From assembly GCF_035285525.1 (NCBI RefSeq), contig NZ_JAYKGW010000157.1:14711-46710 (forward strand): a stretch of DNA of 32,000 bases, written 5' to 3'. The notes under the pieces were generated by a model. It saw only the letters and a list, made by a program, of their open reading frames with translations, made no database searches and was not told the origin of the DNA. The position numbers and the translations under genes are program-made. The DNA is from Okeania sp. (GTDB taxonomy: Bacteria > Cyanobacteriota > Cyanobacteriia > Cyanobacteriales > Microcoleaceae). Positions 5,694-32,000 of this stretch are shown in pieces (the first letter of the stretch is position 1; each line of letters opens with the position of its first letter).

Positions 5694-6141
5694 GCTTATA
5701 CCGTTATTCCTACAAATTAAAATTTAAAATATTTATGATTATTTTGAGATTCTCGCTGTTAATTATAACAGGAGATTCTTTGGTGGGAGTGAATTTGCGC
5801 AACTGGGAATCACTAGAGAAAAGAATTTATTAGTCTACCCGCATTAACACAAGCTGAATTTTAGCACAAACCTTGTAGATATTTAACGTAAAAAGTTGAT
5901 ATAGCAATTCTTAATATTTGTGACAAAATTTTTAGACTTGGTATGGAGGGAACAGGGAATAGAAAGACCAAATAAAATTATACCTCACAAGCTTAAGAAA
6001 CGCTACAAATATTAAGTTTTAAGTTGAAATTAGATAATTTTACTGATGATAATTTTTTAAATTCAAACTTATATTTTATCCGGAATATGGTACAGATAGG
6101 CTGAGAAACTATGAAGTTCCCACGATTTCTTAGTAAGAGCT

Positions 6142-6597
6142 ATGCCACCAAAAGCTCGTTTGAAAAACTATCTGACTACAGAAGAATTGAAAATTCGCTA
6201 TCGACAAGCTCCAGATACCATCGAATCCCGTCGATGGCATCTCCTGCTTTTAATTGCTCAACAATGGTCTATTAAAAAGGCAGCTCAAGTTATTGGGCTT
6301 AATTATGATTATGCCAAGGAAATTGTTGGACGTTATAACCGAGAAGGACCGGAGTCTGTGAAAAATCGTAGCAAGGATCGTCAACCACCTCCTGCTAAAT
6401 CTTTATTGACTTTTGCTCAACAGCAGGAACTATTAATGGCTTTACAAGGGCCTGCTCCTGATGGTGGGACTTGGTCTGGTCCAAAAGTAGCTCGTTGGAT
6501 AGCTGATAAAACTGGTCGGGATCATGTCTGGCCTCAACGAGGTTGGGATTATCTAAAAAGGTTGGGTATTGACTGGAAGAAAAAAGATCACAAGTAA
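6142..6597 (+). CDS. Stand-alone helix-turn-helix / winged-helix protein resembling the N-terminal DNA-binding part (orfA) of IS630-family transposases; no DDE catalytic domain follows
   Basis: 151 aa. RRWHLLLLIAQQWSIKKAAQVIGLNYDYAKEIVGRYNREGPESV is HTH-like, and LLTFAQQQELLMALQGPAPDGGTWSGPKVARWIADKTGRDHVWPQRGWDYLKRLG is the second winged-helix typical of IS630 N-termini. The next 1.1 kb has no ORF. Confidence 0.5.
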   Translation: MPPKARLKNYLTTEELKIRYRQAPDTIESRRWHLLLLIAQQWSIKKAAQVIGLNYDYAKEIVGRYNREGPESVKNRSKDRQPPPAKSLLTFAQQQELLMALQGPAPDGGTWSGPKVARWIADKTGRDHVWPQRGWDYLKRLGIDWKKKDHK

Positions 6598-6619
6598 GTA
6601 TTTCCTCTGGAATGCTTAC
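6594..6619. repeat. 26-bp palindromic mini-element (GTAAGTATTTCC-TCT-GGAATGCTTAC): two termini of the GTAAGCATTC repeat family back to back
   Basis: Direct reading. The TAA stop of the 6142-6597 ORF (6595-6597) lies inside the left arm. The 8-bp flanks GATCACAA and AATAACAA match 6/8. Confidence 0.7.
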
Positions 6620-7027
6620 AATAACAAAGACAACAATAACTGATAATTATTAACCTAGTTTTGGAACCTAAAATTATTAATAAAAACTATATATAAATGA
6701 TTTAATTGGCAATGTATTTTGTAAGCATTTAGTCTTCAGCTATTTAGGCTTTTCTGAATAAATATAAAAGCTTTTAGATATAAAGTTTTGAGGATTTTTA
6801 GGTAGGTCAAAAGTGCAAATTCTGAGGTTGGGAAAGCACGGTTCCCGAAAAATCCTAAATTTAGGATTTTCCCCTAACTATGGCAGAAAATAAAGGGATA
6901 ATTTTTATGATTATATCCTCTATAAATCTTGATTCTTTTTGATTCTGTAGAGACCTTGGGTAAAGGTTTCCCTACCTACTTCCTACTACCTCTCTCAATC
7001 AAAAGACTTTTTCAGTAATACCTATGT

Positions 7028-7195
7028 ATTTGAGTTTGATAAAAAAGCTTTATTGGTTGAAGTAAATTCAATTTTACTATCAAAGAAGACTTTAAAGGTT
7101 ATTTTCATTGAAAGCTATTTTCAAGTTTAGATTAGGATTTGCTGTTGGCGCGACATTCCGCAAAAATAGCCGACAGTTAATAGCTGAATGCTTAC
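7028..7195 (-). mobile_element. Partial, inverted copy of the MITE-like element seen at 11348-11527 (one terminus present, ending ...AATAGCTGAATGCTTAC at 7195)
   Basis: The reverse complement of 11400-11500 aligns by eye with 7028-7110 (...TACTATCAAAGAAGACTTTAAAGGTTATTTTCATTGAAAG...). The terminus GCTGAATGCTTAC is at 7183-7195. Confidence 0.6.
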
Positions 7196-7776
7196 TGTAT
7201 TTTTTTTAAAATATTTTGTAATTATTCAGTCGTCAACTATGAGTTATTAGCTTTATTAACTATGATTTAAATTCAAGATTAGCTTTTTTTTATTCAATTA
7301 TCTACTTGAAAATATGTAAGGATTCATCCTTCAGCTATTAGCTATCAACTATTTGTAATTCACTCATTATTCCACTAGAGGAGCATTATCCATAAAGGAA
7401 TATTCATGGTTATTTTGGTACAGTATTCCGTAGGAAATGAAATTGGTAATAAAACCTAACCTTAGTCATTACTTCCCACATTCAAAAGCTGATAGCTGAA
7501 TGCTTATGAAAATATAGTAGAACACAAGAATGAATCGACCAAGAGAAAATTAACTTGAGTATTTCAAGCCTCTGGCTTAAGTAAGAGGTAATGATAACTG
7601 ATAACTGAAATGACAGATTATGGCTAAATGCTTAACATTAAATCAAATACTTTTCCGGAATCATAGTAAAAATATTGAGAAATTAGATGAAGGTTTTATT
7701 AACCATAATTATTCATGAATTATCAATTATTAATTTAGTAAAACCTGAAATAAAAATATCTCAATATTTAGTAGCT

Positions 7777-8472
7777 ATGAAAATCAATATTTGCACAAAA
7801 ATCATCCTAGCATTTGCCTTATGTTTTGGGATTAATTTAACTCTCAATAATTCCGCTTTTGCTAGACCAAAGCCTCAATTAATTTGTGAATTAAAACCGC
7901 AATTATGTCAAGAAAACCAAGAAACTGTGTGTAAAGAAAATGAAAGTTGCCATCAAAAAGCACTAGAAAGTTGCCAGCAACATAATCCAAATTCCTGCGA
8001 AAAAACACAGTCTGTAGTTGAAGAAATTCGACCTGAAATTCGACCTAATAAATTTTATTGTGAACAAGGTAAAAATGGTATTCCAACTACTTTTGTTAAA
8101 ACACCACAAGGTACTTATCCAGTCATTCGTTGGGTTTCTAATTATTTCTTATCTGCTGGATATACTCCCATGACTCGTTGTCGTCAAGTATCAAATAAAT
8201 TTCAATTATTCTATGATGATGAGAGACTAAATTACATTACGACTGGCATTGTTAATCGTCAACCAGTTGTTTGTGTTTCTAGTAAAAATGGTGGTCCTTG
8301 TCAAGGAGTATTATTTACTCTTAAACCACAACAAAATGCTAGTCAAACAATTCAAAAATTATTTGATATTCGAGTTGGTGCTTCTACAGGTCCCCTGTAT
8401 GAAAGTAGTTCCCGTTTCTATTTAAACTTCAATGATTATTTAAAGAGTTTAGCAAACCAGAGAATGGAGTAA
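7777..8472 (+). CDS. Secreted COP23-domain protein (circadian oscillating polypeptide COP23 family) with a Cys-rich N-terminal segment
   Basis: Part of track ORF 7687-8472. I prefer the ATG at 7777 because MKINICTKIILAFALCFGINLTLNNSAFA is a classic signal peptide (AFA-RP). The C-terminal 130 aa (FYCEQGKNGIPTTFVKTPQGTYPVIRWVSNYF...TPMTRCRQVSNKFQ...NRQPVVCVSSKNGGPCQGVLFTLKP) matches my memory of the COP23 domain pattern. Confidence 0.7.
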   Translation: MKINICTKIILAFALCFGINLTLNNSAFARPKPQLICELKPQLCQENQETVCKENESCHQKALESCQQHNPNSCEKTQSVVEEIRPEIRPNKFYCEQGKNGIPTTFVKTPQGTYPVIRWVSNYFLSAGYTPMTRCRQVSNKFQLFYDDERLNYITTGIVNRQPVVCVSSKNGGPCQGVLFTLKPQQNASQTIQKLFDIRVGASTGPLYESSSRFYLNFNDYLKSLANQRME

Positions 8473-9537: not shown

Positions 9538-11064
9538 ATGAAATTTAAGAATTTTTTACGGAGCTTCGTCAAATTTTTACTCCCTATTAAACCCTTACTT
9601 ATAACTTCTTCTTTATTACTAATTCCTGCTACAACAATTGTTTTCAAACAACCTGTTGCTTTAGCCTTAATGGCAGATCAAATAAAGGAAATTTCTACAG
9701 AATTTACAGTATTAATTGATGCTATAAATCCCGCTTCCGGAATAATTATTTCTCATAAAAAAGATACTTATTATGTTTTAACTGCAAAGCACGTTGTCGA
9801 AACTCAAGATGAATATGCAATTATTACTAAAGATGGAGAAAGATACGAAATTGACTATCAAAGAATCATTAAATTACCAAGAGTTGATTTAGCAATTTTA
9901 GAATTTCGGAGTAATAAAAAATATCAAATTGCTACTTTAGCTAAATATGATTATCAAGCAGAATTTCGTCATGTTTTTGTCTCTGGTTGGCCTGAGTCGA
10001 GATTACCTTTTGCAGAAAGAGAACATTTATTTAGTCCTGGTTTATTAATTAATGAAGATTATGAATTAGCCTTTATTAAAGATCCGGTTTCTAATGGTTA
10101 TGAACTTTTTTATAACAATATTACGGAGTTAGGTTTAAGTGGCGCACCTGTTTTAGATACTCAAGGAAGAGTAATTGGAATTCATGGTGCTTCTGAAGGT
10201 ACAAAAATTTATGATGAAGAATCTAATTCAGTAGCAAGAGTAAATATTGGTTTTAGTTATGGCATTCCCATTAATACTTTTTTAGAATCAGTAAATAAGT
10301 TAAATATTGGGTTAAATTTTCAACTAGAAAATTCACCCCCACCACCACTAACTAGAAAAGAAGTTTTTTCTATAGAAGCTTATTTAAAAGTTCCAGAAAC
10401 AACAGATATTTCTAGTGCAGCAGCATGGGCAAATCGCGGGAATCATTTATATAGATTAGAAAGATTTGCCGAAGCATTAGTAGCTTTTGAACGTTCCATA
10501 AAAATCAGGGAAAATTTTTATCCAGCTTGGTATGGAAAGGCAAATGTTTTATCTGCTTTAGGTAGATATAATGCAGCAATAGATGCTTATAAAAAGACAG
10601 TAAAAATTAAACCAGATTTCTATTTAGCTTGGCGAGACCAAGGAGCTTTATTTGCTTATTTAGATCGACCTCATGAAGCATTAATATCTTTTCATCGAGT
10701 AATTACATATAAGCCAGATGATTTTGCAGTTTGGTATCTGAAAGGGAATGTTTTAGCAGCCAATTTGCAGAAATATGAAGAAGCGATCGCTGCCTATAAT
10801 AAGGCAATTCAATTAAAGTCTGATTTTGCGGATGCTTGGATAGGAAAAGGGGAAGCTTTTTATCGTTTAGGAAATTATGAAAAAGCTAGAGAAGCTGTTC
10901 AAGAGGCAGTGAGACTTAAGCCTAACGATCAAGAAATATCAAATTTTTTAAATTCTTTGAATAAAGATAATTTGCCACAACATTCTGTAGAGTTAATACC
11001 AAATCAAAGAGAAGTTGAAAGAAGAAGTTATCCTCCTCGTAAACAACCTAATTTATTGTGGTAA
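9538..11064 (+). CDS. Trypsin-like serine protease domain fused to C-terminal TPR repeats, with an N-terminal signal/anchor sequence
   Basis: 508 aa. The hydrophobic N-terminus is LLPIKPLLITSSLLLIPATTIVF. Triad motifs are VLTAKHVV, RVDLAILEF and ELGLSGAPVLD. The C-terminal ~200 aa carry repeated 34-aa TPR signatures (AWANRGNHLYRLERFAEALVAFERSIKI, AWYGKANVL..., AWRDQG..., AWIGKGEAFYRLGNYEKA). Confidence 0.85.
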   Translation: MKFKNFLRSFVKFLLPIKPLLITSSLLLIPATTIVFKQPVALALMADQIKEISTEFTVLIDAINPASGIIISHKKDTYYVLTAKHVVETQDEYAIITKDGERYEIDYQRIIKLPRVDLAILEFRSNKKYQIATLAKYDYQAEFRHVFVSGWPESRLPFAEREHLFSPGLLINEDYELAFIKDPVSNGYELFYNNITELGLSGAPVLDTQGRVIGIHGASEGTKIYDEESNSVARVNIGFSYGIPINTFLESVNKLNIGLNFQLENSPPPPLTRKEVFSIEAYLKVPETTDISSAAAWANRGNHLYRLERFAEALVAFERSIKIRENFYPAWYGKANVLSALGRYNAAIDAYKKTVKIKPDFYLAWRDQGALFAYLDRPHEALISFHRVITYKPDDFAVWYLKGNVLAANLQKYEEAIAAYNKAIQLKSDFADAWIGKGEAFYRLGNYEKAREAVQEAVRLKPNDQEISNFLNSLNKDNLPQHSVELIPNQREVERRSYPPRKQPNLLW

Positions 11065-11347
11065 TAAAGTAAGCATTTAGCAGTTAGTTAGCCTCCTACT
11101 GAGGCGGAATTCAGATATTGTTTTTGGTTTGAGATTTAGACCTCTCCTTGAAAACTATATTTTATCAACATATCTCTTGAAATAGAATTTTATAATGGAT
11201 AGCTTTAAAGGCAGGATATTATTACTGACAGCTAATAGCTAAATGCTTAGTTAGTAAATATAGCATTCAACCTTTACCAAAGATTTATAGTAATTTTCAA
11301 TTTTATGTAATAAAATAAAAACTAGGATAGCTCAAAGGAAAAATAGC

Positions 11348-11527
11348 GTAAGCATCCAGCTATTAGCCGTCAGCAAATCCTATCTAAGATATAAAAATGG
11401 CTTGAAATGAATATAACCTTTAAGGTCGCTTTTGATAGTAAGATTCAATTTACCTCAACAAAGCCAAGCTTTTATCTCAAAATAAAATAAATAGCTGACT
11501 GCTAAATGCTGAGTGCTGAATGCTTAC
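11348..11527 (+). mobile_element. 180-bp MITE-like non-autonomous element with imperfect terminal inverted repeats (GTAAGCATCCAGCTATTAGC... / ...GCTGAGTGCTGAATGCTTAC) and a perfect 8-bp target-site duplication
   Basis: AAAATAGC occurs at both 11340-11347 and 11528-11535, immediately flanking the termini. No coding capacity. Related copies are at 11552-11874, 7028-7195 and 25413-25478. Confidence 0.75.
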
Positions 11528-11551
11528 AAAATAGCAGACTGCACTATCAGG

Positions 11552-11874
11552 GTAAGCATTTCCTGGGAGCTATTAGTCGTTATCTCTTCCTGCGGAATGC
11601 TGCGCAAACAGTAAACCCTATCTAAATCTTAAAAATGACTTTAAATAAATTAGAACTTACGCACCAGACGCTATATGTGGCTTCCAAAACTATTGCGCAA
11701 TCGTTTTTGAACTCTATAGATAGTACCTTTGCGTAAGTCCTGTGAATATAACCTTTAAAGTCGGTTTTGATAGTAACATTCAATTTACCTCAACAAAGCC
11801 AAGCTTTTATCTCAAACTAAAATAAATAGCTGACTGCTGACTGCTGACGATGCAGAATGCTTACTTATCAGATA
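11552..11874 (+). mobile_element. Second copy of the same MITE-like element in direct orientation, 323 bp, enlarged by internal insertions
   Basis: It shares with copy A the block GAATATAACCTTTAA(A/G)GTCG(C/G)TTTTGATAGTAA(G/C)ATTCAATTTACCTCAACAAAGCCAAGCTTTTATCTCAAA and the termini. The 8-bp flanks CTATCAGG and TTATCAGA match 6/8. Confidence 0.7.
11655..11738. repeat. 84-bp insertion nested inside MITE copy B, bounded by a perfect 9-bp inverted repeat ACTTACGCA / TGCGTAAGT
   Basis: This segment is absent from copy A at the homologous position. The inverted repeats were read at 11655-11663 and 11730-11738. Confidence 0.6.
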
Positions 11875-22315: not shown

Positions 22316-22357
22316 CCCTATTCCCTATTCCCTATTCCCTATTCCCTATTCCCTATT
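22316..22357. repeat. Heptanucleotide tandem array (CCCTATT)x6, the reverse complement of the AATAGGG array at 16219; it contains the stop codon of the JmjC gene
   Basis: Direct reading. The TAG stop (complement of 22353-22355) lies in the last heptamer. Confidence 0.92.
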
Positions 22358-23537
22358 GCTCTAAATTTGGATTTTGATACTTATAATAATTTGGAAAAAT
22401 AAAGTTCATCAAAGAAAGAGAAATACTAATATTTAATGATTTAACTTGATGCCACCAACCAATAGGAATAAAAATCATTTCTCCTGGTTCCAAAATTACC
22501 TCAATAATTTTTACCTTTTTAAATAAAGGATATTTATTATAGTCTAGATTTTCTAAGTCTACTTGACTAAAAACAGTTTGATAATTATAAACAAAAGGGG
22601 TTTGGTCAGGAGAAATAATTCGCCACAGTTTTTTTCCATAAATTTGAGCGCCAATAAGGTTAGTTTGGTCGTGGTGTAATGGAGTAATTGTACCACCAGG
22701 ACCGAACCATAATTTGATTTGACCTTTAATATTTGAACTGTCTAAAAAATCAGGATAAACATTTATATCATTCAGAAGATGTTGAATTTTGTCTCGTTGA
22801 AAATTACGATTACTAGCAACCATATAATAATCGTTAGTATCACCACCATTGAGAATCATATCGACATATTTGCTTAATTTTAATTCTCTTTTGTGTCGTT
22901 TTTTATTAATTTCATATTGTGGATTTGAGTTACGATTATCTTGAATTTCTACATCCGCATCGCCATAATTAGTTTTAAAGTATTCTGGATTCCACAAAGA
23001 CAGAGCTTTCCATTCAGTCATCATATTTGTAATAATAACTGGGGTATTTGTGGCATAATATTTGGTTAAAAATTCCTCTTTGGAAATACAATTTCTACGT
23101 TCTATATAATTGGAGTTGGGAGATAGTTGATAAATTTGATGACGGACTTCTAAAATAGACTCCAATTTTCTTAATAATTGAGTCATATTATTGCCTGCTT
23201 GGAAATAGGGATTAGTAGTAAGATGATTTAATTCTGCGACAACAATTTCCTCTTTTATTCCTCTTTTAACCATTTCTTGAATAATTAATTTGTCAGGATA
23301 GTTGCGCAATTTTCTTTCTGCAATCCATTGTTTAAAATTATCAGGGATTTCAGATTTATTTGGTTGATTTAATGAATTTTGGCTACTGCGTTGATTCTCT
23401 ATTTCTATAATTTTAGTAGCAATTTTTGCTCGCTCTTTTTCAGAAATATTTTGGTCGTTTAAAACTATTTCTAAAATTTCCAGAGATTTATTAATTAGAT
23501 TGTTTAGCTTATCTTTAGGTAATATTTCCATCGTCAT
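22353..23537 (-). CDS. JmjC/cupin-8 Fe(II)-2OG oxygenase, FIH-like (protein-hydroxylase type), with an N-terminal helical extension
   Basis: Track ORF is 22353-23783. I place the start at MTMEIL (ATG, complement of 23535-23537) because the 82 upstream codons translate dispersed-repeat DNA. The catalytic core TPLHHDQTNLIGAQIYGKKLWRIISPDQ...SQVDLENLDYNKYPLF...PGEMIFIPIGWWHQVKSL parallels the human FIH segment as I remember it ([28 protein letters not shown]...SQVDFDNPDYERFPNF...PGDVLYIPMYWWHHIESL). That gives the HxD...H iron triad. Confidence 0.8.
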   Translation of the reverse strand: MTMEILPKDKLNNLINKSLEILEIVLNDQNISEKERAKIATKIIEIENQRSSQNSLNQPNKSEIPDNFKQWIAERKLRNYPDKLIIQEMVKRGIKEEIVVAELNHLTTNPYFQAGNNMTQLLRKLESILEVRHQIYQLSPNSNYIERRNCISKEEFLTKYYATNTPVIITNMMTEWKALSLWNPEYFKTNYGDADVEIQDNRNSNPQYEINKKRHKRELKLSKYVDMILNGGDTNDYYMVASNRNFQRDKIQHLLNDINVYPDFLDSSNIKGQIKLWFGPGGTITPLHHDQTNLIGAQIYGKKLWRIISPDQTPFVYNYQTVFSQVDLENLDYNKYPLFKKVKIIEVILEPGEMIFIPIGWWHQVKSLNISISLSLMNFIFPNYYKYQNPNLEQ

Positions 23538-23828
23538 TTTTTGACTTGAGGGAACAGGGAACACAGAAGGTGGGAACAGGGAATAGAAAAGAACCAAAAC
23601 AACTATTTTCTTAACATAAAACTTGGGCATTATTGACCAGTTATGTGTAAGTCTTAGTTCGCCTTTTTCTGGAGAAAAATGTATAAAAAAACACATTAGA
23701 AGAGCGATCGCTCTTCGCAGTTTTACTGAGCTAGTATGATGTTTTTTTCTCTTCTCCCCTGCTCCCGAATCCCCTGCTCCCACAAGGGTTTCAGGATTTC
23801 CTTATCAGGGATAGCGCATCATCGGGGG

Positions 23829-24290: not shown

Positions 24291-25151
24291 TTATTCTCGA
24301 ATCCAACCATTAAAGGTAAAACGACTATGTTCAAATTCTTTAGTCGGACAACTAACTGGTAAGACTTCATGTAAGTAACGACTGGGGAAAAATATAATAC
24401 TATTATTGTGAGGTTCAATCACTTTAAAATCATTATGTTTAAAAAGATTATTTCCTTGTACTTTAGTTTCATAAATTACTAATTCTCCTCCAGAAAATGA
24501 TTTTGGTTGTTGATAAAAATAGTAAACATAAGTCATTTTTCTAGTAGCAGTCATTTCTGTATTAGCATCACTATGAATTGTGTAAAAACAACCATCATTA
24601 TGTGCTGTTAATTGAATAACAATATTAGATACAGAGAAATTTGGATGGTTTAGTCTTTCCAAAACTGAGGGGAGAATTTTTAAGACTTTCTTTTGTATTG
24701 ATTTGGCAAGTTCGGAATAAAATTTATGGTGCAGAACTAAAGATTGTCTAAATTTATTGACTTGATTGGTACTTTTATTATGTACTGAAGAATCGGTAAA
24801 ATTATCTTGATTTTTGATGGCAACTTTGAGTGCTACTTCTAGTTCTAGAAATTCCAAGAAATTATAAATTTGTAAACAATTAATTGGTAAAATTTGGGAT
24901 TGATTATGATTGGAAATAGACTGAGGAAAATTAGGGATAAACTTTGGTATTTTAGGAGTAGCAGGTATAATGATTTTGTTACTAGCTGAAGTTATGGAAT
25001 TTTGAATATTTGCTTGAGTAGATTGAGCTATTTCTAATATTCGCAAAGCAACTTCTGCTTTTTCTAATAATGGTGTATTTGAGTTATCAAGAATTGTTTC
25101 TAGTAAATCAATAGACTTAGTTGTTAACTCTTGTAGTTTATCTACAGACAT
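24291..25151 (-). CDS. 2OG-Fe(II) oxygenase of the prolyl-4-hydroxylase-like (P4H / 2OG-FeII_Oxy_3-type) group, with an N-terminal helical extension homologous to that of the neighbouring JmjC protein
   Basis: 286 aa. HxD is in FYTIHSDA, the distal His in SRYLHEVLPV, and the 2OG-binding Arg in SRFTFNGWIRE. A GGELVIYE beta-strand motif is also present. Confidence 0.8.
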   Translation of the reverse strand: MSVDKLQELTTKSIDLLETILDNSNTPLLEKAEVALRILEIAQSTQANIQNSITSASNKIIIPATPKIPKFIPNFPQSISNHNQSQILPINCLQIYNFLEFLELEVALKVAIKNQDNFTDSSVHNKSTNQVNKFRQSLVLHHKFYSELAKSIQKKVLKILPSVLERLNHPNFSVSNIVIQLTAHNDGCFYTIHSDANTEMTATRKMTYVYYFYQQPKSFSGGELVIYETKVQGNNLFKHNDFKVIEPHNNSIIFFPSRYLHEVLPVSCPTKEFEHSRFTFNGWIRE

Positions 25152-25412
25152 ATAGCAATCCTATTTTATTTGTTTATAAAAATCTTGCTGCTTTTTGGAA
25201 ATGGGTATGGAGGTCATTTCAGTTATCAGTAGAGAGTGAACCTCCGAATTTAGTCGGAGGCTTGAAATACTGAGTTAAAATTTTTTCATCCCTTTAGAAA
25301 GGGAAGCTTTATATCTCTTTTTTTGGTAGAATATTCGGAGTTTATTTCTAGTTTTTGAGTTGTTCTTGTGCTTCAATAATAATTTGTTTAAAAATGTAGT
25401 AGTAGTTAAAAG

Positions 25413-25478
25413 GTAAGTTTTCAGTTAAGAAAGCTTTTATCTCAAGCTAAAATAAATAGCTGATAGCTAAATGCTTAC
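25413..25478 (+). mobile_element. 66-bp internally deleted derivative of the MITE-like family (GTAAGTTTTCAG...AAGCTTTTATCTCAAGCTAAAATAAATAGCTGATAGCTAAATGCTTAC)
   Basis: The right 48 bp match the right ends of the copies at 11348-11527 and 11552-11874. No clear target duplication. Confidence 0.5.
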
Positions 25479-25651
25479 ATAGCAAGTAATACCAAATCCA
25501 TCGCTCGAATGGTATTCAAAATTCTCTCTAACCATTACCCCAAACCCCCTATCACCCCAAAAAGATACTTTTATCAACCGGATTTAGTATAAAATAAAAA
25601 AGTAAGTTTTTTTAAGCTTATCCTAATTTAGATAATTCACTAGGAGAAACA

Positions 25652-26254
25652 ATGGCCGAATTAACCAAACTAGAAATGCGTGAAAGATTGGGCAATATTG
25701 ACAAGATTCGTGATATCATTTTTGGTTCTAAGCTGAGAGAATATGAAAATCGTCTTGATAAGCTAGAATCAGAAGTATCTTCAGTTAAGCAAGAAATTAC
25801 GAATCAAATAGCACAATTAAAAAGTGCTTTATCTACAGAACTAAAAGTTATGGTTGATTCTATAGACCAAAAAATTATAGGTATAAATTCAACTCTGCAA
25901 AACAATCAAGAAGATATTACTGAAACTAAGGAACAGGTTGAACGGGTAAATCGAAAAATTATTGCTACTAAAGAAGGTTTAGAGCAAGTTATTAATCATC
26001 AAACAACTTCTTTCCAAGATAATTTGTTACAGAAAAGGGAAAAATTAGAAAGCGATATTAATAGCTTGAAAAATCAAATACTTAAGGAACTTGAGAAGCA
26101 ATTTTCTTTGCTTCAAAATGGCAAAGTTTCACGGGATGATTTGGCAGAAGTTATGTTTGAAGTTGGCATGAGAATGAAAAAGACTGAGTTTGTAGCTGAA
26201 CTGACAGAAGCAGCAAATGAAAATTTAGGAACAGCAGCAATTATCAAGTCATAA
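25652..26254 (+). CDS. Coiled-coil protein, 200 aa, function unknown
   Basis: Heptad-rich, E/K/Q/L-biased sequence throughout, with a conserved-looking N-terminal motif LGNIDKIRDIIFGSKLREYENRLDKLE. It ends 26 nt before the next gene. Confidence 0.8.
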   Translation: MAELTKLEMRERLGNIDKIRDIIFGSKLREYENRLDKLESEVSSVKQEITNQIAQLKSALSTELKVMVDSIDQKIIGINSTLQNNQEDITETKEQVERVNRKIIATKEGLEQVINHQTTSFQDNLLQKREKLESDINSLKNQILKELEKQFSLLQNGKVSRDDLAEVMFEVGMRMKKTEFVAELTEAANENLGTAAIIKS

Positions 26255-26280
26255 AACAATTATTAGGTTCTGAGAAATAT

Positions 26281-29200
26281 ATGGCTTATTTAGATAGAAA
26301 ATCTGGTAATAATCAGCAAGGTATAAGTAATGGTCAATCTGTGGAAATAAATACAGAAGCAGTTGAACAATTAGAACGTTTGCTGAATTTATTAACTGAC
26401 TTGAACTTAATTAGTTTGCCAGTAAAATTAACAGAGAAGTCTATTAAGTCTGATGAGCAAAAACATTTGCTCATCACAGAAACTAATGAGATGGAAAAAA
26501 ATCATAATTCTCTTCATCAGAATCTTATTAAAGATTCTGTTGAAAATGATGATGATGTTATTGATGTTATTAGTTATCTAGTAGAATTAACGGAGGAACC
26601 TATTAAGAATGATGAGCAGAAAATTTTGCTCATCACAGATACTAATAAGGTAGAAGACAATCATAATTCTCTTCATCAGAATCTTATTAAAGATGATGAT
26701 GAAGTTATTGATAAAATTATATTTGACACTGGCAAAAATTACGTTTTTCCATCTCAAACATCAAACTTTAGTCCTCGAAATTTGAGGAATAAATTCTGTT
26801 GTAAATCAACCATAGCTCCTGGTTCCTTAAAGTACAATTTTTACTTTCTAGCAGAATTAACAGAGAAGTATGATGAGCAGAAAAATTTCCTCATCACAGA
26901 CACTAATGAGGTGGAAAAAAATCATAATTCTCTTCATCATAATCTTATTAAAAATGATGATGAAGTTATTGATACAATTATATTTGATACTGGCAAAAAT
27001 TACGTTTTTCCATCTCAAACATCAAATCTTAATCCTCAAAACTTGAGGAATAAATTCTGTTGTCAATCAACCATATATCCTGCTTATTTTAAGTATAATT
27101 TTCATTTTCCAGGAGAATTAACAGAGAAGTCTGATCAACAGAAAAACTTCCTCATCACAGAAACTAATGAGACCGAAAAAAATCAGAATCCTATCAAAAA
27201 TTCTCCTAAAAATAAAGAAAAAATTCTCGATCTGGAGAATCAATCTAGTGATTATCAAAAAGAAATACCAACCAGAGAAAAACCATTCTTTATTTCCTCA
27301 AAATCATCAGAAATATCAGGGTCTCATCACAAAAATTATACAGAATTAGAAGCTTTTGAAATTTTACAAAATATTCTATTTGGTTCACAAATAGCTAAAT
27401 TAATTAGAAATGTAAATACTAACCTGAGCGAACAAAAAATTCATCATCTTCAAGACCAATCAAATAATCTCTCCAACCCTGTATTATTAGAAAATTTATT
27501 AACATATTTATGTCAAACAGAAGGAAAAAATAAAGAAGCAATAAGTTATGCACTAGCTCCTATATTATCTTCCGCATTAGCAATACAAATAGAGCAAGAC
27601 GAACAGTCAATCATTGAAGTTTTAGCACCTTTATTGCCAGGATTAATTTCCTATGCAATCAAGAATTATCCTCAAGAAATTGCTAAAGCTATCGGACCAG
27701 AAATGGGAGCAGCAATTAGAGAACAAGCGAAAATTGACCGACAACAAATTTCTCAAACATTGGCACCAGAAATGGGAGAAGCAATTAAAGAACAAGTTTT
27801 CTTAGAGCGAAATTCCATAATAGATGCTTTATATCCTGTTATTGGAAGTACCATTTCTAAATACATGACAGAAACTATTCGCGAAATTAACCATAAAATT
27901 TCACAGACATTTGGTTCCAAAGTCATAAAACGGAAAATTAAAGCAACTTTACAAGGAGTTTCTGAAGCAGAAATTATGCTTTCGGAAATCAATGATTTTA
28001 GTGTTAAAGCAATATTTTTAATTCACAAAGAATCAGGTTTAGTAATAGCTGAAGCTAAACAACCTGGACTAGAAAAATTAGAATCAGAAATGGTGGCAGG
28101 GATGTTAACAGCTATCCGCAGTTTTGTGAATGATTGTATTGTTCAGTCTGGAGATATTTCCGAGCTAGATGAGATTGAATATGGAGATTCAAAAATTATT
28201 TTAGAGGTGGCTGGACATTGTTATTTGGCAGTAGTAATTAAGAGGGAACCTCACAAATCATATATTAAAGAATTACGCCAAACATTTAGCAAGATTGTGA
28301 TAGATTACGGTCAAGATATTAAGAATTTTTCTGGCGATCCAGAAACAATTCCTAGTTCAATTAAATTACAACTAAAAAAATTAGTAAATGTAGAAGAAAA
28401 GCAAAAATCTTCTGATTCTGAACCACCTACTGCTCTCTTAATACTTTGTGGAATAATATTAAGTTTGATGTTAATTCCTTGGGGTATTTATCACTATAGT
28501 AGTAGAGTTAATCGCAGTATTGAAGTAAAAACTATTAATGGTTGGGCGAATATTCCGCGGTTAGCTTTTTATAGTTTAAATGCAGAAGTAAAAAGAGGTT
28601 ATTTAGTTATAAGTGGGAAATTGCCAAATAAAAATTTACGCAATCAAGCAATAGAAATAGCTGAAAAAGAAGCTAATTTTTATAATTTAAAACTAGATAA
28701 TCAAATAATAATTATAGAAGTACCACCTGACCCCTCGGAAATAAGAGCAGAATTAGAGCTAATCACAAAAGCATTAAATCAAATGAAGGGAGTTTCTATC
28801 ACAACTAAATATACAGAAGATAAGGTGATAGTAATAGGAACCGTGATGGATGCTGTAGATGCTGAGAAAATAATTGCCAAAATTGAGCAAGTCCCTGGGG
28901 TAAAATCTGTTGTTACTGCGATTAAACTAAGTCCACTCACACTGAACAGTCGTATCTATTTTGAGTTGGGTTCAGCTAAACTTCAACCTGCTTATACAGA
29001 AACAATAGTTCAAATTAAACAATTTCTCAGTCAACATCCTACAAAATACCTTAAAATTATAGGCTATACAGATCGTACTGGTGGTCCTGATATTAATCAA
29101 AAATTGGCTCTTGAGCGAGCAACTATAGTCAGGGATGCTTTAGTTAAGCAAGGAGTGGATGCCAGACGATTGATAGTAACTGGAAAAACTAGCTCTCCTC

Positions 29201-29283
29201 AAGATGTGGAAGATAATCAACCATTATTATTGAGTAGATGTGTCGTATTTGAGTTGCTTGAAGAAACTGCAGAAGATAACTGA
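26281..29283 (+). CDS. 1000-aa multidomain envelope-spanning protein: N-terminal tandem repeats, 23-aa helical LAP-repeats, a Roadblock/LC7-like alpha/beta module, one TM helix, two BON-like segments and a C-terminal OmpA/MotB peptidoglycan-binding domain
   Basis: The repeat region is aa ~50-300. There are 5 x 23-aa repeats with xxLAPxxGxAIxxQ (aa ~420-537). The pattern alpha-beta-beta-alpha-beta-beta-beta-alpha runs aa ~572-676 (VKAIFLIHKESGLVIAEA...ESEMVAGMLTAIRSFVNDCI...LDEIEYGDSKIILEVAGHCYLAVVIKR). The TM helix is PPTALLILCGIILSLMLIPWGIYHY (nt 28423-28495). The OmpA_C motif is IYFELGSAKLQP...LKIIGYTDRTGGPDINQKLALERATIVRDALVKQGVDARRL (nt ~28951-29250). Confidence 0.85.
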   Translation: MAYLDRKSGNNQQGISNGQSVEINTEAVEQLERLLNLLTDLNLISLPVKLTEKSIKSDEQKHLLITETNEMEKNHNSLHQNLIKDSVENDDDVIDVISYLVELTEEPIKNDEQKILLITDTNKVEDNHNSLHQNLIKDDDEVIDKIIFDTGKNYVFPSQTSNFSPRNLRNKFCCKSTIAPGSLKYNFYFLAELTEKYDEQKNFLITDTNEVEKNHNSLHHNLIKNDDEVIDTIIFDTGKNYVFPSQTSNLNPQNLRNKFCCQSTIYPAYFKYNFHFPGELTEKSDQQKNFLITETNETEKNQNPIKNSPKNKEKILDLENQSSDYQKEIPTREKPFFISSKSSEISGSHHKNYTELEAFEILQNILFGSQIAKLIRNVNTNLSEQKIHHLQDQSNNLSNPVLLENLLTYLCQTEGKNKEAISYALAPILSSALAIQIEQDEQSIIEVLAPLLPGLISYAIKNYPQEIAKAIGPEMGAAIREQAKIDRQQISQTLAPEMGEAIKEQVFLERNSIIDALYPVIGSTISKYMTETIREINHKISQTFGSKVIKRKIKATLQGVSEAEIMLSEINDFSVKAIFLIHKESGLVIAEAKQPGLEKLESEMVAGMLTAIRSFVNDCIVQSGDISELDEIEYGDSKIILEVAGHCYLAVVIKREPHKSYIKELRQTFSKIVIDYGQDIKNFSGDPETIPSSIKLQLKKLVNVEEKQKSSDSEPPTALLILCGIILSLMLIPWGIYHYSSRVNRSIEVKTINGWANIPRLAFYSLNAEVKRGYLVISGKLPNKNLRNQAIEIAEKEANFYNLKLDNQIIIIEVPPDPSEIRAELELITKALNQMKGVSITTKYTEDKVIVIGTVMDAVDAEKIIAKIEQVPGVKSVVTAIKLSPLTLNSRIYFELGSAKLQPAYTETIVQIKQFLSQHPTKYLKIIGYTDRTGGPDINQKLALERATIVRDALVKQGVDARRLIVTGKTSSPQDVEDNQPLLLSRCVVFELLEETAEDN

Positions 29284-29292
29284 CTATAAATT

Positions 29293-29814
29293 ATGATATC
29301 GAAAAAAATTTGTCTTGTTGGTGATTTTGGTGTGGGAAAAACCAGCTTAATTCGTCGATTTGTAGATCGACAATTTAGCGACCAATATCTTTCTACTGTG
29401 GGAGTGAAAATTTCCAGTAAAGTAGTAAATTTATCTACCACAGAAATAAAAAAAAATAGTTCCTTAAGACTATTAATTTGGGATTTAGAAGGTCATACTA
29501 AGTTTAAGGCGATCGCTCCTAGTTATTTACAAGGTGCTAGTGGAGCTATAGTTGTTGCTGATGTTACTCGTCAAGAGACTATAGCTAATCTTTCTGAAAG
29601 ATTAGAATTATTTTTTTCAGTAAATCCTAAAGGTATCGCAATATTGGCTTTGAATAAATCTGATTTAGTTGATGCAGAGATAATTAATCAATTGCTTTTA
29701 AAACTGAATAATCAGGAAGATGAAAGAGTCATTGCGACATACAATACATCTGCTAAAACTGGTGAAAATGTGGATGATATTTTTGATAAATTATCTTATA
29801 GGATGGTGAAATAA
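29293..29814 (+). CDS. Small Ras-superfamily (Rab/Rup-like) GTPase, 173 aa
   Basis: G1 is GDFGVGKT (nt 29320-29343), a Rab-like switch I is YLSTVGVKI, G3 is WDLEGH (D at 29482-29484), G4 is NKSD (29653-29664) and G5 is TSAK. It starts 9 nt after the stop of the 1000-aa gene. Confidence 0.9.
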   Translation: MISKKICLVGDFGVGKTSLIRRFVDRQFSDQYLSTVGVKISSKVVNLSTTEIKKNSSLRLLIWDLEGHTKFKAIAPSYLQGASGAIVVADVTRQETIANLSERLELFFSVNPKGIAILALNKSDLVDAEIINQLLLKLNNQEDERVIATYNTSAKTGENVDDIFDKLSYRMVK

Positions 29815-29914
29815 TTAATAATGGATAATGAATAATGAAAAATACCTCTAATAGTTAATGATTTGTTATCCATTGGTAAATAGGATTGAAGCAAATACAG
29901 AAATCTCCTAGTTG

Positions 29915-29968
29915 TAGGGGTTTGGTTTCCAAATCCCTTGATATTTGGGTTTGGAGACCAAACCCCTA
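29915..29968. repeat. Inverted repeat with 19-nt arms (TAGGGGTTTGGTTTCCAAA / TTTGGAGACCAAACCCCTA, 1 mismatch) separated by 16 nt
   Basis: Direct reading. The arms are 29915-29933 and 29950-29968. Confidence 0.85.
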
Positions 29969-29989
29969 GGGTAAAACCTTACAACCTAT

Positions 29990-30043
29990 AACTACTCCCT
30001 ACTCCCTACCTTGACAAAAAGACTTCCATAACAAACTCTAATA
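29990..30043 (-). repeat. Inverted copy of the TTAGGGTTTGCTGAATAAT...AGGTAGGGAGTAGGGAG dispersed module, upstream of the histidine kinase gene
   Basis: The reverse complement reads TTAGAGTTTGTTATGGAAGTCTTTTTGTCAAGGTAGGGAGTAGGGAGTAG. Confidence 0.65.
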
Positions 30044-30125
30044 ATTTAATTATCAATTTTGTTTCCACCCTTCCCACGCTTCTTACTTCCTTGGAATAAA
30101 TTAAATCTTTCAGTGTGTACTACCT

Positions 30126-31673
30126 ATGATTAATCTATTTAAAAAACTCTTATCGTCTCGTCAAACAGAGTATTTAATAATTAATTCCCAGCTAAAAATT
30201 TTAGAGGTATCAAATGGTGTAAAAAGGTTTACTGAATCTCCAGAATTAGCAGTTCCAGGTGAAAATATTCAAAATAGTTTTCCTGAATTAATAGGCTCGG
30301 AAAAAGCATTAAAAGAAGTAATTAGTGGGAAGAGAGAAAGTTTTGAATATGAGGGAATAGCTAAATATTCTAGACAAGAAGATCCCCTATATTTTGATAT
30401 TATTGTAATTTCTGATTTAGATAATCATTACCAGGGGCGAAACTTAATTGTATTAGTAGAAGATGTTACTGAAAAAATGGTAATGCAGCAGCAGCTAACT
30501 CAAAGTGCTAATGAATCTCATCTCTTGTTAAGTGCTTTAACTGCTTCTCAGGATTATATTAATAAAATCATTAACTATATGGCAGATGCTTTATTTGTCA
30601 CCACAAGTTCAGGAGTAATTAAAACTATTAATCATGCCGCAGAAATTTTATTTGACTATCCAGAAAAAGAGTTGCTAGGTAAAGAAATTTCCCTAATTAT
30701 TCCCCAAGAAAATTTACTACATAAAGCCCGACAAAAACATTTGCTTTTACAAGGAAAAGTATCTCAAGATGTAGAATTAATTTGTTATAACCAAAGTGGA
30801 GAACAAATAATTGTTGAATTTTCTTGTTCAATAATTCAGACAAATGTGGAAGGAGTCAACAATTTTGTTTATATAGGTAGAGATATTACAGAGCGGAAAA
30901 AAGAGGAAGAAAAAATACTTCAAGATTTGGAGCAAGAACGAGATATGAGAGAATTAAGGGGTCGTTTTTTCTCTATGGTTACTCACGAATTTGGTAATCC
31001 TTTAAATACAGTTTTATTGTCTACTCAAATGCTTCGCTCTTATGAAGACCAAATTACTGAAGAAGAAAAAAGTCAATATTTACTCTTTATTGAAGAATCT
31101 ACCCAAGAAATGTTGGAACTGCTGGAAGATGTCAGGTTTATTGGTAAAGCAGATGCAGGAAAACTACAATATAGACCAGAACCTGTTGATTTGATTCAAC
31201 TATCTTCTCATATTGTTAATTCCATGAAAGTTACTGCTAGTGATAAACATATTATTGACTTTAAAGTTGATAATAAATTATCTACAAATTATGAGTTTAA
31301 ATCTGACAATGATGAGATAGAATTTTTCTTGATGGATGATAAATTAATTAGGCACATTTTAAATAATTTATTGTCTAATGCTATTAAGTATTCACCGACG
31401 GGAGGTCATGTAGATTTTCAGTTGACTTTGGATGAAAAAAAAGCTATTTTTTCTATTAAAGATGAGGGTATTGGTATTCCAGTTGAGAGTCAAAAAAATT
31501 TATTTGAATCTTTCCATAGAGCAAGTAATGTCGGCAAAATATCAGGAACAGGATTAGGATTATCTATTGTTAAACAGTGTGTAGAGTTGCATGGTGGAAA
31601 AATAAATTTTTCTAGTGAAGTTGGCAAAGGAACTACTTTTATAGTTGAAATTCCATTAAAAATATTATCTTAA
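30126..31673 (+). CDS. Soluble sensor histidine kinase: two PAS-like domains, HisKA and HATPase_c; no TM segment and no receiver domain
   Basis: 515 aa. The H-box is FFSMVTHEFGNPLN (His codon 30984-30986), the N-box NNLLSNAIKYSP, the G1 IKDEGIGIP and the G2 GTGLGLSIVKQCVELHGG. PAS-like core: INYMADALFVTTSSGVIKTINHAAEILFDYPEKELLGKEI. Confidence 0.92.
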   Translation: MINLFKKLLSSRQTEYLIINSQLKILEVSNGVKRFTESPELAVPGENIQNSFPELIGSEKALKEVISGKRESFEYEGIAKYSRQEDPLYFDIIVISDLDNHYQGRNLIVLVEDVTEKMVMQQQLTQSANESHLLLSALTASQDYINKIINYMADALFVTTSSGVIKTINHAAEILFDYPEKELLGKEISLIIPQENLLHKARQKHLLLQGKVSQDVELICYNQSGEQIIVEFSCSIIQTNVEGVNNFVYIGRDITERKKEEEKILQDLEQERDMRELRGRFFSMVTHEFGNPLNTVLLSTQMLRSYEDQITEEEKSQYLLFIEESTQEMLELLEDVRFIGKADAGKLQYRPEPVDLIQLSSHIVNSMKVTASDKHIIDFKVDNKLSTNYEFKSDNDEIEFFLMDDKLIRHILNNLLSNAIKYSPTGGHVDFQLTLDEKKAIFSIKDEGIGIPVESQKNLFESFHRASNVGKISGTGLGLSIVKQCVELHGGKINFSSEVGKGTTFIVEIPLKILS

Positions 31674-31687
31674 GATTAGGGAGTAGT

Positions 31688-31830
31688 TTAATAATTAATA
31701 ATTAATAATTAATAATTAGGGTTTACTGAATAATTCTTTTTGTACTTGGCAGGGAGTAGGGAGTAGGGAGTGTGGGAAGTTTGGGGAGTTTGGGGAGTTT
31801 GGGAAGTTTGGGGAGTTTGGGGAGTTTGGG
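31688..31830. repeat. Repeat block after the kinase stop: (TTAATAA)x4 heptamers (31688-31717), the TTAGGGTTTACTGAATAAT module (31715-31775) and G-rich short tandem repeats GGGAGTA / AGTTTGGGG (31751-31830)
   Basis: Direct reading. Confidence 0.85.
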
Positions 31831-32000
31831 AAAAAATACTCTATTTGATAAGATTAGGGATTAAAAACTAGGTAGTAAAAAGTAGGAATAAATGTAGGGG
31901 TTGTGGGATATGTAGGAAGTGATAAAAAAAATACTCTATTTTATAAGATTATCGAGTAGGAAAGAATCCGGGAAATCTCGAAAGTGTAGAAAGTGCGAAA

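Follow-up and report, generated by a model that had tools for sequence, protein, structure and literature searches.

The locus described here raises the question of whether a coiled-coil protein, a peptidoglycan-binding membrane protein, a small GTPase and a histidine kinase (HK) that are encoded side by side belong to one system and, if so, to which. The four genes lie on the same strand of a 32,000-nucleotide (nt) stretch of DNA from Okeania sp., a filamentous marine cyanobacterium (contig NZ_JAYKGW010000157.1). We refer to this whole stretch as the window and give all positions in its numbering. An initial annotation, made from the DNA letters alone, had not recognised the combination among described systems. 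Judging by its sequence features, the locus is very probably a Group 1 Rup module, an Okeania example of a system already known from computational work published in 2015. The genes, with the evidence for each (ORF, open reading frame; aa, amino acids), are as follows.

25652-26254, + strand: gene for a soluble coiled-coil protein of 200 aa, the 'DUFY' of the Group 1 Rup neighbourhood (ORF; synteny)
26281-29283, + strand: gene for a large bitopic membrane protein of 1000 aa, 'DUFX:OmpA' (ORF; Pfam)
29293-29814, + strand: gene for a Rab-like small GTPase of 173 aa, Group 1 Rup type (ORF; Pfam; synteny)
30126-31673, + strand: gene for a soluble histidine kinase of 515 aa (ORF; Pfam; synteny)

The intergenic gaps calculated from the ORF coordinates are, in order, 26 nt, 9 nt and 311 nt, and both the four same-strand ORFs and this spacing are exactly as the initial annotation had given them.

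The Group 1 Rup neighbourhood and its conservation

According to Wuichet and Søgaard-Andersen (Genome Biol Evol 2015, PMC4316618), Group 1 Rup genes have three further conserved neighbours. These encode a coiled-coil protein ('DUFY'), a protein combining 'DUFX' with a transmembrane segment and OmpA, and an output protein, either an HK or a GGDEF/EAL protein, with an invariant N-terminal Gln. The G3 motif of Group 1 Rup GTPases is without the catalytic Gln, which the authors speculated to be supplied in trans (PMC4316618). The Okeania locus has every one of these features. Its GTPase is a single-domain protein of 173 aa (the published limit is <240 aa) in which G1, G4 and G5 are canonical, G3 has an Asp (DLEG), and the catalytic G3 Gln is absent (DLEGH). 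The gene is adjoined by a coiled-coil (DUFY) gene at 25652-26254 and by a DUFX-transmembrane-OmpA gene, and the output contains the invariant N-terminal Gln (Gln122). Because of this agreement, the view that the combination was unrecognised proved wrong: the same neighbourhood had been described in 2015 (PMC4316618), with four components and an order identical to those in Okeania and with no structural difference.

Table S2 of that study places 'DUFY>DUFX:OmpA>Rup>' in Nostoc punctiforme, Anabaena, Cyanothece and Acaryochloris, the cyanobacterial examples of the layout being Npun_F1891, Ava_0879, cce_4705 and AM1_2998. The same layout is listed for Nitrospira and for alpha-, gamma-, delta- and epsilon-proteobacteria, and an arrangement without OmpA for Bacteroidetes and Chloroflexi (PMC4316618). 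The initial annotation had suggested roles in a filamentous cyanobacterium, but a function confined to such organisms is unlikely, given that unicellular cyanobacteria, Proteobacteria, Nitrospira, Bacteroidetes and Chloroflexi have the module as well. A 2016 paper referred to Rup proteins as 'of unknown function', and a literature search by Rup name, locus tags and topic found no experimental study of any Rup system. To the published description the present analysis adds the predicted longin/Roadblock fold of DUFX, the BON domains and the PAS-like N-terminus of the output, together with cyclase outputs, tandem multiple outputs and a shared [IL][IL]FG motif.

Conservation was followed with the large protein as query in a scan of one genome per species. 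Relatives are encoded in 501 species genomes, and synteny was counted in the best 80 loci among these, which come from Dapis, Okeania, Trichodesmium, Microcoleus, Kamptonema, Tychonema, Oscillatoria, Lyngbya and Phormidium. The GTPase gene lies directly downstream of the large gene in all 80 loci (gap 12-90 nt; 61-91% identity), which bears out the synteny check that the initial annotation had proposed. The coiled-coil gene lies upstream in 79 of the 80, the sole exception being a contig end, and a kinase homolog, the output gene, follows downstream in 79. Because this order is kept in 79-80 of 80 related species genomes, the four ORFs are real genes rather than chance reading frames.

The same gene order recurs on a distant metagenomic cyanobacterial contig and on the Nostoc flagelliforme plasmid pNFSY07. 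On the Mesorhizobium plasmid pWSM1497 the order reads hypothetical protein, OmpA family protein, 'Rab family GTPase' and adenylate/guanylate cyclase, with gaps of 6, 11 and 3 nt. There the coiled-coil counterpart (L083, 4092-4757) is 27% identical to the Okeania protein (E 1.7e-8), and the GTPase is 42% identical (E 8e-39). The NCBI label for both the Nostoc and the Mesorhizobium GTPase is 'Rab family GTPase', and M. loti mll3243 is a Rup reference sequence (PMC4316618). Judged by the conservation of their order, the four genes are a real, ancient, cross-phylum and functionally linked module.

The link to the kinase turned out stronger than had been assumed. In Microcoleus the kinase gene begins ~6 nt past the GTPase gene by tblastn matches, the reading frames abut or overlap by ORF calls, and the output proteins share a system-specific head, described below.

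The 2015 study had itself compared the Group 1 Rup system with the actinobacterial conservon (PMC4316618). The conservon analogy in the initial annotation is therefore the same in concept but already proposed, and the CvnA-D set is not what the locus contains. The likeness is that the conservon and the mycobacterial Mfp system also encode a sensor kinase, a Roadblock-fold protein and a small GTPase together. DUF742/CvnC is present in the conservon, whereas Pfam found no DUF742 in the four proteins of the Okeania module. The conservon GTPase belongs to MglA Group 2 and that of Okeania to the Rup family; the conservon kinase is of the transmembrane-HAMP type with an LPxR motif, and that of Okeania is soluble and PAS-type. 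Finally, the Okeania Roadblock-like domain is fused to a peptidoglycan anchor, unlike the conservon Roadblock protein.

The predicted fold of the DUFX domain

How a GTPase might be coupled to the cell wall depends on the anatomy of the large protein, whose parts are listed below with the numbering of the protein in aa.

26281-27315, + strand: variable low-complexity N-terminal region, aa 1-345, unalignable between genera
26605-27189, + strand: 261-nt tandem duplication in the variable region (Tandem Repeats Finder: period 261, 2.2 copies, 88% matches)
27364-27387, + strand: motif LQNILFGS, aa 362-369, where the conserved cytoplasmic part starts (alignment); it resembles a motif of the coiled-coil protein
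27622-27897, + strand: four 23-residue proline-punctuated helical repeats, aa 448-539 (pattern [LI][AGY]P-x-[LIM]…, in register at 23-residue spacing)
27964-28407, + strand: longin/Roadblock-like domain, aa ~562-709, the 'Unc/DUFX' domain (two AlphaFold2 models, Foldseek; no Pfam or PDB sequence match)
28084-28146, + strand: central helix LESEMVAGMLTAIRSFVNDCI, aa 602-622, between beta2 and beta3 (column conservation)
28429-28494, + strand: single transmembrane helix, aa 717-738 (the sole Kyte-Doolittle windows >1.6)
28561-28668, + strand: first BON-like segment, weak, aa 761-796 (Pfam BON E 7.7e-4, 20.1 bits, profile 19-54 of 69, sub-gathering)
28777-28932, + strand: BON domain, aa 833-884 (PF04972, E 3e-10 to 5e-12, 40.6-46.5 bits against a cut-off of 27)
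28957-29196, + strand: OmpA-like peptidoglycan-binding domain, aa 893-972 (PF00691, E 4.8e-16, 59.3 bits against a cut-off of 27.2)

The topology first proposed, a cytoplasmic part followed by one transmembrane helix and then BON and OmpA domains, agrees with the presence of one hydrophobic segment at aa ~717-738, within or beside which Pro, Trp and Gly are conserved. Pfam also matched the OmpA domain, the Ras-superfamily GTPase and the PAS histidine kinase that had been called, the kinase having no hydrophobic segment and thus being soluble, and NCBIfam agrees with the Pfam domain calls for the module proteins. Two BON-like segments had been suggested: that at aa 833-884 is firm, scoring above the gathering threshold (E 3e-10, in two stretches, when the full protein is searched), and that at aa 761-796 is weak only. 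Sequence matches of the OmpA domain in the PDB include YiaD (1.2e-14), Omp38, Rv0899/ArfA and Pal. In its order of transmembrane helix, BON and OmpA-like domain, the periplasmic half is like M. tuberculosis ArfA/Rv0899, E. coli YiaD and OsmY-type BON proteins, but these have neither the ~700-aa cytoplasmic region nor a GTPase partner.

Directly before the transmembrane helix, the initial annotation had called a Roadblock domain with the order alpha-beta-beta-alpha-beta-beta-beta-alpha (aa ~562-681). This order was reproduced by two AlphaFold2 (AF2) models. The first covered aa 542-704 with a 12-sequence alignment (predicted local distance difference test (pLDDT) 74.7, predicted template-modelling score 0.66) and gave helix-strand-strand-helix-strand-strand-strand-helix. 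The second covered aa 500-712 with 55 diverse sequences, and its core was mostly at pLDDT 85-97, falling to ~72 in the central helix and to 55 in a single loop. In the confident part of this second model the predicted element order is E-E-H-E-E-E-H-H (E, strand; H, helix), matching the longin beta-beta-alpha-beta-beta-beta-alpha-alpha fold. The helices N-terminal to beta1 reached pLDDT 56-77 in the two models.

When both models were compared with the PDB using Foldseek, all 50 of the 50 matches listed were longin or Roadblock domains (E-values 1e-4 to 4e-3; template-modelling (TM) scores 0.4-0.77). The best full-length superposition was with Sec22b (TM-score 0.71-0.77; root-mean-square deviation (rmsd) 2.8-3.1 A), and the further longin-type matches were Ykt6, VAMP7, adaptor sigma subunits, Mon1-Ccz1 and TRAPP/sedlin. 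Roadblock-type matches comprised LAMTOR/Ragulator, Rag C-terminal domains, dynein LC7, MglB (3t1r; MglA-MglB complex 3t12) and the Streptomyces Roadblock/LC7 protein 3kye. Mon1-Ccz1, TRAPP, LAMTOR/Ragulator, the Rag C-terminal domains and MglB are GTPase regulators among these matches. With LAMTOR, Rag C-terminal domains, MglB and 3kye the agreement extends over the core sheet and the central helix, the helices before beta1 being of lower confidence. Superposition on MglB was poorer than on longin domains (TM-score 0.37-0.46; rmsd ~9 A). We therefore use the label 'longin/Roadblock-like', which is accurate given the two confident C-terminal helices and the better full-length superposition on longin than on MglB.

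Sequence identity to these structural matches is 6-20%. Pfam Robl_LC7 (PF03259) and Longin gave no match at E<=10 to the full protein, to the isolated segment, which the initial annotation had singled out for a check against PF03259, or to 12 family members, and NCBIfam gave no sequence-level Roadblock or longin match for the large protein. A family profile searched against all PDB sequences retrieved no Roadblock protein, and we took its best match, TolR (E 0.85), as chance. The Roadblock call thus stands at the level of the predicted fold and not at the level of sequence, with longin fitting the full length better than MglB does.

The domain family comprises 4199 clusters at 50% identity (E<=1e-3). 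Helix aa 602-622, which contains invariant residues, is the most conserved element of the large protein, with a mean column identity of 0.93 compared with 0.65-0.78 in other conserved regions. Longin and Roadblock folds are circular permutations of each other (Levine et al., PMC3747258). Both form dimeric platforms to which a GTPase binds on the side carrying the lone helix that lies between strands 2 and 3, and their sequences as a rule show very little conservation (PMC3747258). By analogy, helix aa 602-622 would correspond to this single 'top-face' GTPase-binding helix. We consider the case for the longin-like domain binding or regulating the GTPase to be evenly balanced.

Eukaryotic Rab/Rag platforms with longin or Roadblock domains (Mon1-Ccz1, TRAPP, DENN, Ragulator, SR-alpha/SR-beta) offer the closest parallel, in that a Rab-like GTPase is likewise paired with a longin-matching domain and the conserved single-helix face binds the GTPase there (PMC3747258). 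They differ in showing no detectable sequence homology to the Okeania domain, which lies within a bacterial bitopic protein that is tethered to peptidoglycan. A 2013 review considered prokaryotes to be without longin domains, and our literature search found no paper assigning a longin/Roadblock fold to the DUFX domain. The assignment of DUFX to the longin/Roadblock platform class, at the level of the predicted fold, is new here; the 2015 study had counted zero Rup genes coupled to MglB homologs (PMC4316618). That DUFX might be a genuine bacterial longin-type domain, serving Rup GTPases as cognate membrane platform, guanine nucleotide exchange factor (GEF) or GTPase-activating protein (GAP) cofactor, is a more doubtful proposition, which the models suggest rather tentatively.

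The GTPase, its outputs and a proposed mechanism

The following features of the GTPase gene, the kinase gene and the gap between them bear on how the components might act together.

29482-29496, + strand: G3 motif DLEGH, aa 64-68, with Asp kept and His for the catalytic Gln (alignment)
29916-29938, + strand: predicted terminator-like hairpin in the GTPase-kinase gap (consensus scan: 10-bp stem, 5 G-C pairs, weak T tail)
30171-30473, + strand: N-terminal PAS-like module of the kinase, aa 16-116 (PAS_9, E 1.2e-4, full-length, sub-gathering)
30489-30491, + strand: codon of Gln122, in the motif T115-x2-M118-x3-Q122-x-L124-x4-N129 (alignment)

Pfam matched the 173-aa protein to Ras (E 8e-28) and Roc (E 3e-27). 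Its 60 best PDB matches were all Rabs or Rab-type proteins, with Rab22A, Rab1B and Rab14 foremost (E ~1e-23), and MglA was not among these 60. Because its closest solved relatives are eukaryotic Rabs, the label 'Rab-like' holds. The further motifs are G1 GDFGVGKT, G4 NKSD and G5 SAK. DLEGH occurs in 79 of 81 aligned sequences (the 80 loci and the window); one has DLEGQ, and one is cut by a contig end. The C-terminus (…YRMVK) has no Cys, and no hydrophobic segment was found, the maximum 19-residue Kyte-Doolittle score being <1.2 for the kinase, the GTPase and the coiled-coil protein alike. Without a C-terminal Cys the GTPase would not be prenylatable in the eukaryotic way and would need a protein receptor to reach the membrane.

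The kinase consists of a divergent PAS-like module, a helix with Gln122, and then PAS, HisKA and HATPase_c domains, the last three matched by Pfam. Across loci, the output proteins are conserved only over the first ~265 residues. Beyond these the protein may continue as a plain kinase, as a PAS-GAF-PAS adenylate/guanylate cyclase or as a multi-PAS/GAF kinase of ~1780 aa. Several loci have two same-headed outputs in tandem, two or three can lie behind one GTPase, and a further same-headed output gene lies 3' of the kinase gene in 51 of 63 loci, where a representative resembles the cyclase-type outputs. Since the PAS-like head is common to these varied and tandem outputs, it is the system-specific part and, on this comparison, probably faces the GTPase.

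Gln122 is invariant in 78 aligned output N-termini from syntenic loci, and it matches the 'invariant glutamine' of the output N-terminal region in the 2015 study (PMC4316618). In the Mesorhizobium cyclase a Gln aligns at the same position, albeit in a weak alignment (E 0.09). Given that the GTPase has DLEGH and not DxxGQ, Gln122 may act in trans at the GTPase active site, an idea that the alignments raise and that we hold with some scepticism. Comparable GAPs acting in trans are the RapGAP of Rap, with its Asn thumb, and the TBC RabGAPs, with a Gln finger; the similarity is that a GTPase without G3 Gln is accompanied by a partner with an invariant Gln. In Okeania the candidate donor would instead be a helix just behind a PAS-like domain, and it has no relation to the RapGAP and TBC folds.

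From the observed gene content, domains, conservation, synteny and predicted fold we infer the protein-protein contacts, the direction of signalling and any GEF or GAP roles in the mechanism that follows. On balance we think it probable that a peptidoglycan-tethered platform docks the GTPase, which in turn controls interchangeable PAS-headed outputs. The large protein would be a bitopic scaffold of the inner membrane, attached non-covalently to peptidoglycan through its BON and OmpA-like domains in the periplasm. In the cytoplasm, after the proline-punctuated repeats and directly before the transmembrane helix, it would present the longin/Roadblock-type platform. Docking on this platform, probably on the side of helix aa 602-622, would bring the anchorless Rab-like GTPase to the membrane, and the platform, possibly with the coiled-coil protein, would set the nucleotide state or position of the GTPase. 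In its GTP-bound form the GTPase would engage the PAS-like head of the output, which is the histidine kinase here and elsewhere an adenylate/guanylate cyclase, a giant multi-sensor kinase or, according to PMC4316618, a GGDEF/EAL protein. Gln122 stands just after the PAS-like module and may supply, in trans, what the active site of the GTPase lacks. The periplasmic BON/OmpA part would either sense envelope state (outside-in) or merely fix the complex in place. The net effect would be to couple envelope position or state to phosphorelay or cyclic-nucleotide signalling.

Several observations weigh against this mechanism. The match of the platform is at the fold level, with no sequence or profile signal, and could reflect convergence or a role unrelated to GTPases. 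A distant family member (L081) has no adjacent GTPase gene, so the linkage to the GTPase is very strong and not absolute. In Okeania a 311-nt gap with the terminator-like hairpin parts the kinase gene from the GTPase gene. The residue replacing the catalytic Gln also varies, being His in cyanobacteria and Glu (DLAGE) in the Mesorhizobium GTPase. His itself can be catalytic in Sar1 and EF-Tu-type GTPases. With a possibly catalytic His in the one case and a Glu in the other, a Gln supplied in trans is perhaps needless.

Other explanations would account for part of these observations. The longin/Roadblock-like domain could be a dimerisation or ligand-sensing domain, with the GTPase regulated only by the output head, the coiled-coil protein or both. 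This would fit its lack of sequence similarity to GTPase-binding Roadblock or longin families, the top Foldseek matches being SNARE longin domains and adaptor sigma subunits, not all of which bind GTPases, and the member without an adjacent GTPase. However, adjacency of the GTPase gene to the domain gene is near-universal across phyla, conservation peaks in the helix of the face where a GTPase would be expected to bind, and the domain adjoins the membrane, exactly where an anchorless GTPase would need a receptor; we judge this explanation rather unlikely. Somewhat less likely still is a switch for polarity or motility like MglA/MglB, in which the anchored Roadblock-like protein would serve as the mark of a pole or septum and the GTPase would steer gliding or the type IV pilus machinery. 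In Myxococcus and Thermus, too, a small Ras-like GTPase is found beside a protein of Roadblock-type alpha/beta fold, and the platform fold resembles MglB (3t1r and 3t12 among the Foldseek matches). The best 80 loci all come from gliding filamentous Oscillatoriales, and several other phyla in the 2015 table contain gliding bacteria. The GTPase speaks against such a switch. The MglA family has a G3 of TxxGQ type without Asp and a coupled mglB, and MglA uses an intrinsic Arg finger (PMC4316618, PMC3747258), whereas the Okeania protein, with Asp in its G3 (DLEGH), is Rab-like and has Rabs as nearest relatives. MglB is small, soluble and recognised by Pfam Robl_LC7, unlike the Okeania domain. Moreover, no motility genes adjoin the module in the window, its conserved neighbours are kinases and cyclases, and it also occurs in non-gliding bacteria (Mesorhizobium, Alteromonas and unicellular cyanobacteria).

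We also considered whether the large protein could be a MotB/TolR-like stator or envelope-integrity anchor, the GTPase and kinase genes being unrelated passengers. Some homologs have the Joint Genome Institute (JGI) label 'flagellar motor protein MotB', the best PDB profile match was the non-significant one to TolR, and transmembrane-BON-OmpA proteins of the Rv0899/ArfA type act on their own. We rejected this reading as highly improbable. No MotA/ExbB/TolQ partner is encoded nearby, no acidic residue is visible in the transmembrane helix or its conserved positions, and passenger genes would not be expected to keep one order in cyanobacteria and alpha-proteobacteria alike, with spacings of just 3-26 nt next to the GTPase gene. 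A defence system was likewise rejected, as PADLOC returned coiled-coil noise only and no defence signature.

The docking of the GTPase on a tethered platform, which we favour, would have consequences beyond this locus. Of all bacterial proteins, the Rup GTPases come closest to eukaryotic Rab, Ras, Rho and Ran. If DUFX is a longin/Roadblock platform, the system acquires a testable logic of platform, GTPase and PAS-headed effector, the last perhaps supplying Gln122, and a large bacterial family, counted as uncoupled in sequence searches, would come under the rule of a small GTPase on a longin/Roadblock platform. Were DUFX a genuine longin domain, bacteria would possess a widespread module of Rab-like GTPase and longin that is tethered to the cell wall and not to an endomembrane, which would bear on the origin of the eukaryotic Rab-longin-GEF pairing. 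A demonstrated contact between platform and GTPase would be of interest both for bacterial G-protein signalling and for the origins of Rab-longin pairs. Tethering to peptidoglycan hints at how bacteria could keep a G-protein switch in a set position, or else inform kinases and cyclases of the state of the envelope. In terms of annotation, thousands of entries named 'OmpA family protein' or 'hypothetical protein' could be named as components of one system, and a clearer view of the interchangeable PAS-headed outputs is gained.

Variation within the module and its surroundings

The coiled-coil protein is highly conserved over its N-terminal ~35 aa and C-terminal ~25 aa, and Pfam gave it sub-threshold coiled-coil matches only. 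One motif stands out.

25706-25729, + strand: motif IRDIIFG[SA], aa 19-26 of the coiled-coil protein, kept in 76 of the 79 loci that have the coiled-coil gene

The Mesorhizobium protein has the form IRDLLFG. A common pattern, [RQ]-[DN]-[IL]-[IL]-F-G-[SA], describes both this N-terminal motif and the start of the conserved part of the large protein. Homology between the coiled-coil protein and the N-proximal region of the large protein was not established (BLAST E 0.26; hhalign probability 9-17%), the short [IL][IL]FG motif alone being held in common.

The large protein is 100% identical to an Okeania sp. entry that is named merely 'OmpA family protein', and family members range from ~650 to >1600 aa. 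The 261-nt tandem duplication in its variable region is recent and encodes ~87-aa repeats with paired Cys (…NKFCC…). The 23-residue repeats have a mean column identity of 0.78, and a homolog (P0062, aa 144-626) contains ~16 copies at exact 23- or 46-residue spacing. The sole repeat covered by the second AF2 model, aa 517-539, is predicted to be helical with low confidence. The layout recalls the proline-punctuated amphipathic repeats of apolipoproteins.

The space between the GTPase and kinase genes differs among loci. In close relatives (Dapis, Okeania) it measures 1.0-1.6 kb and contains no ORF >=70 aa, and one locus (L071) has a ~1.58-kb gap at the same site. One Microcoleus genome (L047) has a 423-aa ORF here, HNH-nuclease-like, ~250-1520 nt past the GTPase stop, which by eye we take to be IscB- or RRXRR-like.

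More distant members vary further. L081, from a Synechococcaceae metagenome-assembled genome (6001-8662), is split into a 636-aa protein without OmpA and a separate 235-aa OmpA gene, with neither a GTPase nor a coiled-coil gene adjacent. In the Mesorhizobium member (L083, pWSM1497, 4764-7829) the periplasmic region from the transmembrane helix to OmpA consists of four ~150-aa near-identical repeats and not of BON. In Nostoc flagelliforme (L084, pNFSY07, 9646-11623) the module is followed by genes annotated as anti-sigma regulatory factor, SpoIIE-family phosphatase and STAS protein, and in locus L082 a STAS gene and response-regulator/Hpt genes also lie 3' of the module. These partner-switching genes (L084) and the STAS and response-regulator/Hpt genes (L082) may be downstream signalling partners.

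The neighbours of the module in the window (GatB, a glycosyltransferase, MBOAT, peptidases and two oxygenases) are unrelated to it and show no synteny with it. The upstream JmjC and 2OG-oxygenase genes were considered as parts of the module and rejected, being syntenic in just 1-3 of the 80 loci. These two, a JmjC/Cupin_8 gene (22353-23783, - strand) and a 2OG-Fe(II) oxygenase gene (24291-25151, - strand), adjoin each other. Their products have a common ~45-residue N-terminal helical segment (35% identity, E 2e-7), and their catalytic domains differ.

Known RNA families were absent from positions 25000-32000 of the window, and its last 330 nt contain no ORF and no Rfam match. Two simple repeats lie 3' of the kinase gene: TTAATAA in 4.4 copies (31688-31718), and GGGAGTTTG in 7 copies, alternatively a 27-nt unit in 2.5 copies (31766-31832).

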